DNA of 64,000 nt from an uncultured Chloroflexia bacterium (lineage in GTDB: Bacteria > Chloroflexota > Dehalococcoidia > DSTF01 > JACRBR01). The notes below the pieces were generated by a model that saw nothing but the letters and a program-made list of their open reading frames with translations, was not told the origin of the DNA and ran no database searches. The translations under genes were made by a program, and so were the position numbers. Below are positions 11,490 to 11,656 of the stretch, one piece after another. How positions within the stretch are numbered: the stretch's first letter is position 1; the number at the start of each line of letters is the position of its first letter. The stretch covers positions 2,576,537-2,640,536 of the forward strand of contig OY969567.1 of assembly GCA_963701135.1 (NCBI GenBank), read 5' to 3'.

Positions 11490-11656
11490 GAGTATAGGTT
11501 AGGTGATAGGTGCTAGGTTCTAGGTGATAGGGTGGGGAACAAGGACAGAGCTCGGACAACAGACTGCCGACGTGTACCGCCACCCCCTATCACCTAACAC
11601 CTAACACACCTAACACCTATCACCTAACACCTATCACCTATCACCTATCACCTATA
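11490..11656. repeat. Long imperfect inverted repeat of AGGTGATAGG/AGGTTCT decamer units flanking an ACAGACA-type loop, in the divergent ligA/hisH region
   Basis: Left arm TAGGTTAGGTGATAGGTGCTAGGTTCTAGGTGATAGGGTGGGG. Right arm CCACCCCCTATCACCTAACACCTAACAC...CCTATCACCTATCACC. Confidence 0.7.

Follow-up and report, generated by a model that had tools for sequence, protein, structure and literature searches.

Heptanucleotide repeat arrays in the intergenic DNA of a Dehalococcoidia bacterium, including a palindrome between ligA and hisH

Introduction

In a 64-kb stretch of contig OY969567.1 (assembly GCA_963701135.1), the whole of which is referred to here as the window, the entire gap between the divergent genes ligA and hisH is occupied by a 167-bp imperfect palindrome (positions 11490–11656) built of tandem seven-nucleotide units. 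Similar units fill other gaps of the window, and a preliminary description, made from the letters alone, suggested a genome-wide system, possibly of contingency sequences, terminators, insulators or protein-binding arrays. The question raised by this locus is whether such arrays do anything for the genes they separate or have simply grown where nothing prevents their growth. The reading that we favour, at a probability of roughly 60%, is that they are lineage-specific heptanucleotide (occasionally octanucleotide) long simple-sequence repeats (SSRs) which have grown by slippage and amount to neutral spacer filler.

Judged by the relatives of its RNase Y, the host is a member of the Dehalococcoidia within the Chloroflexota. 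For this protein an uncultured Dehalococcoidia metagenome-assembled genome (MAG) shows 89% identity, and Tepidiformaceae and other Chloroflexota show 56–70%; nearer relatives (92–96%) are known from metagenome assemblies only. The GC content of the window is 65–76%. The closest species (95% RNase Y identity), referred to below as the sister species, is represented by four assemblies (L081–L084) that are 99.8–100% identical to one another and by a metagenome contig (L237). All array counts, densities and polarity tests given for the host cover the 64-kb window, in which we counted 43 intergenic gaps of at least 60 nt.

Results and discussion

Period, density and location of the arrays

The window was scanned by lag autocorrelation, with an array called at a score of at least 10 and composition-preserving block shuffles as the control. 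The scan returned 24 arrays at lag 7, 15 at lag 14 (the double unit) and between 0 and 4 at each of the other lags from 4 to 13 and at lag 15, and the shuffles gave an average of 0.3 period-7 arrays with a maximum of 3. Tandem Repeats Finder (TRF) reported 29 rows of period 7, covering 1184 bp, and no other period covered more than 526 bp. The density of period-7 arrays is 375 per Mb, compared with 8.8 per Mb in a background sample of 1.24 Mb drawn from 80 other genomes. The arrays are overwhelmingly intergenic: 24 of 26 fall within the non-coding 14.5% of the window, where about 10% of the bases are array. Their lengths reach 19 and 28 units, the exact counts of the long arrays being uncertain because frameshifts in four essential genes (described below) indicate indel errors in the assembly. 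Runs of identical variant units and higher-order periods of 14 or 21 nt in the TRF output are signs of the kind that slippage leaves. All of the repeats listed in the preliminary description were recovered at, or a few bases from, the positions given for them, and its picture of slippage-type tandem repeats that are far denser than usual and in many cases form foldable inverted pairs is borne out.

Its statement that nearly every intergenic gap carries such repeats is too broad, as about 17–18 of the 43 gaps do so and no heptamer array was found in 26–36 kb or 48–56 kb of the window. Apart from these two segments the arrays are scattered along the 64 kb. Array-free segments of 8–10 kb are expected if arrays come from slow mutation in situ, and the two segments may be recently acquired DNA. 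We note that positions 26000–36000 hold a glycosyltransferase, PMT and GDP-mannose-dehydratase cluster, and that positions 48000–56000, where the GC content is slightly lower, hold genes for DHDPS, a histidine kinase and an ISL3 transposase (55224–56378). Gaps between convergent genes carry arrays more often than other gaps (8 of 11 compared with 10 of 32; Fisher p = 0.03).

Two architectures are seen. In the first, complementary inverted arrays fold as long hairpins, with predicted energies of −75.6 kcal/mol at 11485–11660 (z = −8.35), −40.4 kcal/mol at 47553–47682 (z = −4.7), −48.3 kcal/mol at 12290–12400 (z = −4.2), −64.1 kcal/mol at 9296–9440 (z = −4.2) and −54.3 kcal/mol at 57640–57765 (z = −2.4); the first two of these are the long inverted repeats for which folding had been proposed. 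In the second, non-complementary arrays stand on either side of a short GC-rich hairpin and are themselves unpaired, as at 16155, 24276, 43272, 56385, 20075 and 58660. A search of the whole window against Rfam gave no match at the gathering thresholds.

The palindrome between ligA and hisH

The ligA gene lies on the minus strand, with its GTG start at 11484–11482, and hisH on the plus strand, with its ATG at 11665. Read on the plus strand, the left, G-rich arm of the palindrome (11498–11537) consists of about five TAGGTNN units (TTAGG TGATAGG TGCTAGG TTCTAGG TGATAGG GTGGGG) and was delineated by a TRF row of period 7 (11500–11531), the inverted-repeat search and the fold. It is followed by a central spacer or loop (11538–11579) and by the right, C-rich arm (11580–11655), in which CCACCCC precedes about ten CCTATCA or CCTAACA units with a 14-nt higher-order period (TRF rows 11586–11655, periods 7 and 14). 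The ACAGACA loop that had been described for both long palindromes is present at 47596–47633; at the present locus the spacer holds only a degenerate remnant of the ACAG type, GGACAGAGCTCGGACAACAGAC. By sequence reading, a TATACT −10-like box stands at each outer end. One (11491–11496, minus strand) closes the left arm on its outer side and lies 6 nt upstream of the ligA GTG; the other (11653–11658, plus strand) overlaps the final repeat unit, 6 nt upstream of the hisH ATG. The right arm is twice as long as the left (about ten units compared with about five) and contains different variant units, which argues against selection for a precise hairpin.

From this arrangement we infer that ligA and hisH probably have −10-only promoters and leaderless mRNAs. 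The palindrome would in that case be upstream of both transcripts, and it would represent a recent expansion that expression does not require. Two relatives (L251 and L252; 85% LigA identity) keep CC(T/G)TATACT-N6-GTG before ligA, and one of them retains hisH divergent from it, but neither has a heptamer array at the ligA locus. With the promoter present and the array absent in these orthologues, the palindrome is best regarded as a dispensable lineage-specific expansion. The CCTATACTGCCRGCATG of the hisH −10 region recurs upstream of another gene in the contigs L239 and L250. A −35 role for the CCTATCA arm was considered and rejected, as the hexamer 17 nt upstream of TATACT fits TTGACA at one of six positions.

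The same signature, CC(T/G)TATACT followed after 5–7 nt by ATG or GTG, was noted at 11653, 11491 (minus strand), 24452, 4942 and 45847 of the window and in other contigs (L251, 3077–3090; L252, 5491–5506; L239 and L250); it would imply that leaderless mRNAs are frequent in the lineage. Canonical TTGACN-17-TAnnnT promoters coexist with it, at 22638 (rny), 57769 and 59088 (before rpoB).

Turnover among relatives

Both the presence of arrays and their unit number differ between species at orthologous sites. Period-7 arrays are all but missing from the 21-kb loci of GTDB representatives whose RNase Y identity is 56–89%, and relatives at 56–92% have about 0–3 arrays per 21 kb; the sister species carries AGGTGAT, ACAGCAA and CCTACCA units at three to four sites per 21 kb. 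Alignment of the (GAGAACA)n array before the hairpin at 20093–20118 shows three units in the window and four diverged units in L081, with an identical hairpin stem. After the rny stop codon, aligned TAGG-type units number one in L081, about three in the window and about four in L001, with the position of the hairpin conserved, and at another orthologous locus L239 has about one or two TAGGTTG-type units compared with four in L250. Among L081–L084 no indels were found across 12–19 kb that included arrays, those covered being short (three to four units).

In the window an array of 19 CCTCCAA units (22495–22629; 135 nt, 57% C and 0% G) stops 8 nt upstream of the rny promoter, the −35 box of which (TTGACC) begins at 22638. 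The array is absent from L081 and L001, yet alignment shows the promoter and 5′ untranslated region (UTR) of rny to be conserved in both. We note that the promoter, TTGACC-18-TATGAT, and the 5′ UTR of about 80 nt are highly conserved in the three species (window, 22638–22750; L081, 9893–10003; L001, 9886–10003) and that the last 23 nt are identical. This suggests that the UTR, which has no Rfam match, may be a regulatory leader. A GC-rich non-coding stretch of 420 nt (22078–22494) separates the phosphotriesterase gene from the array; it has no Rfam match and no clear open reading frame (ORF).

Unit order and polarity

Two features of the arrays stand out, namely a recurring order of units and a polarity from G-rich to C-rich that is shared with unrelated genomes. 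The order on one strand is (TAGGTNN)n, GGGG or GGGGACA, (ACAGCAA)n, AGGG and (GAGAGCA)n, with pyrimidine-rich CTTCCCG and then CCTCCAA or CCTANNN units further 3′. The composite occurs at 47558 and 41636 in the window, at 16308 in L081 and in six high-GC metagenome contigs. The sister species shares both the unit vocabulary and the order with the window, and the composite region of L237 is identical to that of the species to which L081 belongs. When the high-GC metagenome contigs were compared by tblastx with the window and with its relatives, no genes in common were found. A search of 2.9 million IMG/VR contigs for the composite pattern gave no match, and metagenomes gave 16, of which eight are high in GC. 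TAGGTNN repeated 3.5 times matches more than 120 IMG/VR contigs of 30–70% GC, so that the unit by itself is not lineage-specific.

The composite at 47558 is part of the second long palindrome. Its left arm (47558–47592, plus strand) comprises four TAGGTGA, TAGGTTC or TAGGTTT units and then GGGG, the first TAG (47559–47561) being the stop codon of the ORF at 46347–47561; its loop (47596–47633) is (ACAGACA)5.4 with 96% matches in TRF; and its right arm (47654–47679), CCCCTAAAACCTAGAACCTATCACCT, mirrors the variant order of the left arm minus one 7-nt unit and adjoins the tsaD stop codon (47674, minus strand).

The polarity was measured as GC skew. On the plus strand, the skew is higher in the left than in the right half of 16 of the 17 gaps with arrays (Wilcoxon p = 1.5 × 10⁻⁴), whereas no such trend is seen in the 26 array-free gaps (p = 0.56), and the purine content of arrays declines along the gap (Spearman ρ = −0.66, p = 4 × 10⁻⁴). 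By symmetry, on either strand and in any type of gap, 5′ arrays are G-rich and 3′ arrays are C-rich. The same chirality prevails among adjacent array pairs in unrelated heptamer-rich contigs (30 compared with 7; binomial p = 2 × 10⁻⁴). Several IMG/VR loci (L172, L151, L094, L102, L134, L139, L208, L213/L217 and L234), filed as viral and of 53–67% GC, contain 5–13 heptamer arrays per 5–13 kb, including many inverted and even nested pairs (in L102, GCTAGGT..TCGGGTA..ACCCGAT..AGCACCT), and share AGGTGNT, GTTGGAG and ACAGNAA units with the window. Such contigs indicate that genomes rich in heptamer dyads are more widespread than the literature suggests.

Slippage in unconstrained spacer as the probable origin

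Array ends coincide with signals. In the TAGGTNN arrays at 47559, 14300 (minus strand) and 24278, and likewise in L240 and L246, the first TAG serves the upstream ORF as its stop codon; reverse-complement arrays run out into CCTATACT −10 boxes, at 11491 and 11653 of the window as well as in L239, L250 and L081; the array at rny adjoins a −35 box (22638); and some arrays reach to within a few bases of a ribosome-binding site or a start codon (12396 and 11655).

We propose that slipped-strand mispairing in a 7-nt register would create arrays, and turn them over, in intergenic DNA free of constraint, and that their growth would halt at a selected signal, which could be a stop codon, a promoter box (−10 or −35) or a terminator hairpin. 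Within a single gap the arrays on the 5′ side are G-rich and those on the 3′ side C-rich, often with complementary units, so that the gap in its entirety is imperfectly palindromic and, whether as DNA or as RNA, able to fold. The dyad at 11490–11656 would be a case of this kind, wedged between the −10 boxes of divergent ligA and hisH, outside both predicted transcripts and dispensable. At gene 3′ ends, dyads and arrays that flank a short GC hairpin would plausibly have a secondary part in 3′-end hairpins or in transcriptional insulation. The higher-order periods, the unequal arms, the differing unit numbers at orthologous sites, the absence of arrays from orthologous loci and the two empty clusters all fit slippage in unconstrained spacer. 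The one-unit indel between the arms at 47558 and 47654 is a further sign of slippage.

Several observations weigh against this proposal. The enrichment of arrays in convergent gaps (p = 0.03) is equally predicted by a terminator function. The recurrence of one unit order at non-orthologous loci of several species is not obviously predicted by independent slippage and hints at dispersal of a module or at selection. The polarity from G-rich to C-rich has no established mutational explanation, and the mirrored variant order of the arms at 47558 and 47654 calls for inverted duplication or arm-to-arm conversion in addition to slippage.

Alternative explanations

The best of the alternatives, which we nevertheless consider unlikely, is that the dyads and array-flanked GC hairpins punctuate transcription units as bidirectional terminators or insulators. 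In a genome of 69% GC without T-runs, an unstructured C-rich and G-poor array after a hairpin might serve for the loading of Rho or take the place of a U/A tract. Besides the excess of arrays in convergent gaps, this would account for the strong hairpin, formed or flanked by arrays, in seven of the eight convergent gaps that carry them, for the insulator-like placing of (CCTCCAA)19 between the upstream gene and the rny promoter, and for the retention of the 20075 array and its hairpin in the sister species. At 6478–6494 and 20093–20118 a terminator-like site has as its T-rich tail the complement of an ACAGACA-type array (in the case of the 6454 array, on the minus strand). A general role of ACAGCAA/TTGCTGT arrays as terminator tails was nevertheless rejected, since T-rich and A-rich arrays are not placed consistently around hairpins, the A-rich array following the hairpin at 16161 and 24278. 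Moreover, canonical terminator-like sites are no commoner in the window than in shuffles, divergent gaps hold the palindrome at 11490–11656 and three more dyads, each on the upstream side of both promoters, and orthologous genes of relatives manage without arrays. To our knowledge, cyanobacteria lack Rho and yet are rich in heptamer arrays, which also weighs against this explanation. The terminator role considered in the preliminary description is thus plausible for some arrays but not for the palindrome between ligA and hisH, which lies between divergent promoters and is missing from orthologous loci.

The order and polarity of the units allow a more ambitious reading, which we regard as distinctly unlikely: a polar, multi-unit 'punctuation grammar' of a high-GC Dehalococcoidia-like clade (5′ TAGGTNN, GGGGACA, ACAGCAA and GAGAGCA; 3′ CTTCCCG and then CCTCCAA or CCTANNN) whose order would be read by a dedicated factor and would delimit or insulate transcription units. 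Candidate factors could be a single-strand-binding protein with a 7-nt footprint, or the ribosome or Rho acting through the Shine–Dalgarno (SD)-like G-rich and anti-SD-like C-rich arms. Were it true, the chirality common to unrelated heptamer-rich genomes and to Xanthomonas would be a general rule, as yet undescribed.

We are very doubtful of a dispersed palindromic element, similar to repetitive extragenic palindromic (REP) sequences, bacterial interspersed mosaic elements (BIMEs) or MITEs (miniature inverted-repeat transposable elements), of which a composite would have been copied to new sites and then expanded by slippage. The same unit order at non-orthologous loci (47558 and 41636 in the window, L081 and the six metagenome contigs) is what such an element would leave, and the left arm at 11498 shares with the arms at 47558 the variant order GGTGATA-GGTTCTA-GGTGATA-GGG and an inner GGGG...CCCC clamp. 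GTAG-headed REP-like hairpins are also present in the window. The arrays, however, have no constant length and no defined termini, and most are single or have non-complementary partners. As a MITE the element was rejected because lengths and loops differ and no target-site duplication is found at 47558/47679, while the TATA 'duplication' at 11490 is indistinguishable from a repeat unit. Identity with REP or BIME was rejected because length and unit vary; only a separate element fits that definition, the GTAG-headed palindrome GTAGGGGCGGAGCCATGCCTCCGCCC, with three tandem 33-nt copies at 2964–3051 and one dispersed copy at 6500–6521 where none is expected by chance. Hairpins related to it were noted at 38845–38900. 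A link to REP-associated tyrosine transposases (RAYTs), raised by the (G)TAGG common to the heptamers and the REP head, found no support in the window: no RAYT (Y1 transposase) was found among the 48 window ORFs scanned against Pfam, the sole transposase being the ISL3 enzyme.

Binding arrays for a protein with a 7-nt footprint, whether a cold-shock-domain protein, S1 or CsrA on RNA or a nucleoid protein on DNA, are quite improbable. The strict 7-nt register and the restricted unit vocabulary across species speak for them, and the G-rich units (AGGTGAT, GGAGG) are SD-like and the C-rich units resemble the anti-SD tail of 16S rRNA (AUCACCU, CCUCC). An S1, Csp or CsrA function has also been proposed for the TAACTGA repeats of marine Beggiatoaceae (MacGregor, 2015; PMC4679880). 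The many different units do not make a single site, the arrays are missing from orthologous loci and several of them lie outside predicted transcripts.

Phase-variable contingency loci, in which changes in unit number would switch neighbouring genes, are very improbable, and here the preliminary description can be set aside. These slippage-prone arrays do in some cases touch promoters (11653 and 22629), but their neighbours are housekeeping genes (ligA, hisH, rny, hem genes and groEL), they lie upstream of −35/−10 elements or downstream of stop codons with none inside an ORF or a −35/−10 spacer, and the four nearly identical sister assemblies show no indels in the 12–19 kb compared, which included short arrays. 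In addition, the part of the literature on long SSRs summarized in PMC4679880 associates the heptamer class with non-pathogens.

The least probable explanation is that noisy long-read assembly produced the arrays, since identical units and composites turn up in five assemblies of the sister species made from short reads and in further metagenome contigs from Illumina data; the arrays therefore exist and only their exact unit counts are uncertain. The suspicion arises from the frameshifts that split ligA (9489–11484, minus strand), hisH (11665–12281), groEL (43360–45074, minus strand) and rpoB (59235–64000) across several reading frames. In hisH there are two single-base insertions, near 11755 and 11795. 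The public record is similarly fragmented, its P0121 being a 136-residue LigA fragment that is 100% identical to the window and lies on a contig of 3,617,538 nt, a length that speaks for a near-complete assembly. Splits in essential genes point to uncorrected indels of long-read assembly and not to pseudogenes. We note that L246, a short-read contig, contains about 22 consecutive CAGAGAG units after a TAGGTTG/ACAGCAA module (approximately 6770–7130, on the reverse strand of the locus), so that long arrays of the clade assemble from Illumina data too.

Other arrays and features of the window

The remaining arrays are given as they read on the plus strand. An ACAGACA/CAGAGAG-type array occupies 2915–2952 (TRF), (AACTGTG)2.7 lies at 3065–3083 (TRF and lag-7 scan), and (ACAGACA)4.7 at 6454–6486 stands in a convergent gap on the 5′ side of a REP-like hairpin. 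An octamer palindrome recognized by TRF and by its fold fills another convergent gap (9296–9432), with a left arm of the GTCGGTCA type and a right arm of nine CCGACTGA units. Between hisH and an FtsX-like gene, inverted AGAACCN and NGGTTCT arrays (12291–12396) end 8 nt before an AGGAG Shine–Dalgarno sequence; this is the sole pair in which the C/A-rich arm comes first. Seven CCTACAA or CCCACAA units (14266–14315) enclose the TAG stop codon (14300–14302) of a minus-strand proline dehydrogenase gene. The hairpin CTCCGGCCGAAGGCCGGAG is flanked by (TTGCTGT)4 on its 5′ side (16161–16188) and by 4.7 CCTACCA or CCTACAA units on its 3′ side (16231–16263).

The (GAGAACA)3.4 array at 20075–20098 runs into the terminator hairpin at 20093–20118 and is orthologous to the four-unit array of L081. 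The 3′ module of rny (24278–24368) consists of the TAG stop codon with TAGGT-type units, a conserved GC hairpin (24307–24338) and then (ACAGCAA)3. Between hemA and hemC, (GTTGGAG)2 is followed by (GAGAGCA)2.6 (38807–38831). A divergent gap holds (ACAGCAA)3 at 41653–41674, and about 28 CCTCCAA units with interspersed CCGCCGG and CGTCCAA variants occupy 41704–41903, upstream of a gene starting near 41922. On the 3′ side of a 16-bp terminator-like hairpin (43277–43312), (AGAACCT)4 is followed by (CCTAGTC)3.4 (43312–43368). Downstream of the series (GACAACA)5, (ACAGCAA)5, (GCAAAGG)2 and pyrimidine-rich CTTCCCG-type units (45660–45805) stands a TTGACG-17-TACGGT promoter. A convergent gap that follows the ISL3 transposase gene contains (GTTGGAG)4, a GC hairpin and (CTACGAA)3 (56388–56477). 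Inverted octamer arrays of the GTCAGTCG and CTGACAGA types (57644–57762; TRF and fold) fill a divergent gap, and 8.4 AGAACCA or AGAACCG units with a 21-nt higher-order period (58660–58718) lie on the 3′ side of the hairpin GCGGGCGCTGCGCGCCCGC.

Unrelated to the heptamers, a 167-nt non-coding tandem duplication (26784–27147; 2.2 copies, 98% identical) has the hairpin GGCGCGGGCTTTTCAGCCCGCGC at each junction. The cumulative GC skew has its minimum at about 30000–32000, the skew being negative over 14–32 kb and positive over 32–64 kb.

Significance

Heptanucleotide microsatellites of bacteria have been noticed since 1990 and 2007 and are still functionally unexplained. The window is an extreme example, with about 10% of its non-coding DNA as array and roughly 40 times the background density, and it places such arrays in the phylum Chloroflexota; a search of the literature library available for heptanucleotide repeats in Chloroflexi or Chloroflexota found no earlier report. 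Two regularities may be general, namely the exact ending of arrays at stop codons and −10 or −35 boxes and the chirality of gaps, G-rich and then C-rich. If the arrays are neutral, they read out which intergenic bases are constrained, together with a bias of the replication machinery towards slippage by 7 nt; should they be functional, they would represent a terminator or insulator solution of a high-GC genome without T-runs. In practical terms, they would explain breaks and collapses in short-read MAGs of the clade and could serve as strain-typing markers.

Comparison with known repeat systems

The arrays are of a kind already described, the heptanucleotide long SSRs and the short tandemly repeated repetitive (STRR) sequences, so that the preliminary view of a repeat without a described class has to be corrected. 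As in the LSSR5–11 class, the window has tandem 7-nt units beyond chance, a dominant period of 7, a mainly intergenic location, and unit numbers and sequences that differ between species. The class was described by Mrazek et al. (2007), as summarized in PMC4679880, according to which heptamers are its commonest form in many bacteria and polymerase slippage has been proposed as their origin.

Contingency SSRs of pathogens share with the arrays a proneness to slipped-strand mutation. Their units are of 1–5 nt (sometimes 7), they lie within surface or virulence genes, in the ORF or in the promoter spacer, and they vary between clones, none of which applies to the window. REP and BIME sequences are likewise intergenic, palindromic, frequent between convergent genes and capable of forming 3′ hairpins, but they are fixed palindromes of 20–40 nt with a GTAG head, mobilized by RAYTs, whereas the arrays are tandem repeats of variable length.

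Cyanobacterial STRR sequences have the units CCCCAGT, TTGGTCA and CAACAGT. The window resembles these genomes in having several intergenic heptamer units of unexplained function, the STRR sequences being dispersed genome-wide, and differs in phylum, GC content and unit set; membership was rejected, as the units are TAGGTNN, ACAGCAA, CCTCCAA and others and the host is not a heterocystous cyanobacterium. For Calothrix PCC 7601, three STRR heptanucleotides are mentioned in PMC4692102. The TAACTGA repeats of marine Beggiatoaceae are a single unit in 2–6 copies per set, mostly just upstream of start codons, with one inverted set among 170 (MacGregor, 2015; PMC4679880). They too are short intergenic heptamer arrays beside housekeeping genes, but the window has many units, up to 28 copies, arrays at both gene ends and mostly inverted pairs.

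The closest likeness that we draw is with the intergenic SSRs of heptamer type that Rehm et al. (2015; PMC4692102) described from Xanthomonas (GGGAATC) and Nostoc (GGGGAYT), which are members of the LSSR5–11 class. Inverted 'convergent' pairs, which occur at 70–75 per genome in Xanthomonas with lengths that vary between species (PMC4692102), show that the paired architecture of the window is itself known. The density of heptamer arrays in Xanthomonas is about one-tenth of that in the window (approximately 36 per Mb for GGGAATC compared with 375 per Mb for all units), the units of the window are not capable of forming G-quadruplexes (GG runs only), the window combines many unit families whose order recurs in place of one dominant unit, and the host belongs to the Dehalococcoidia of the Chloroflexota. 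In all other respects compared, the arrays agree with those of Xanthomonas and Nostoc: they have 7-nt units, are intergenic, run from two to more than 20 units per array and show no link to gene function; they frequently form 'convergent' pairs, G-rich and then C-rich, that are capable of stem-loop formation; and they stand between the same genes in sister species while varying in length and sequence. With Xanthomonas they also share a high-GC host.

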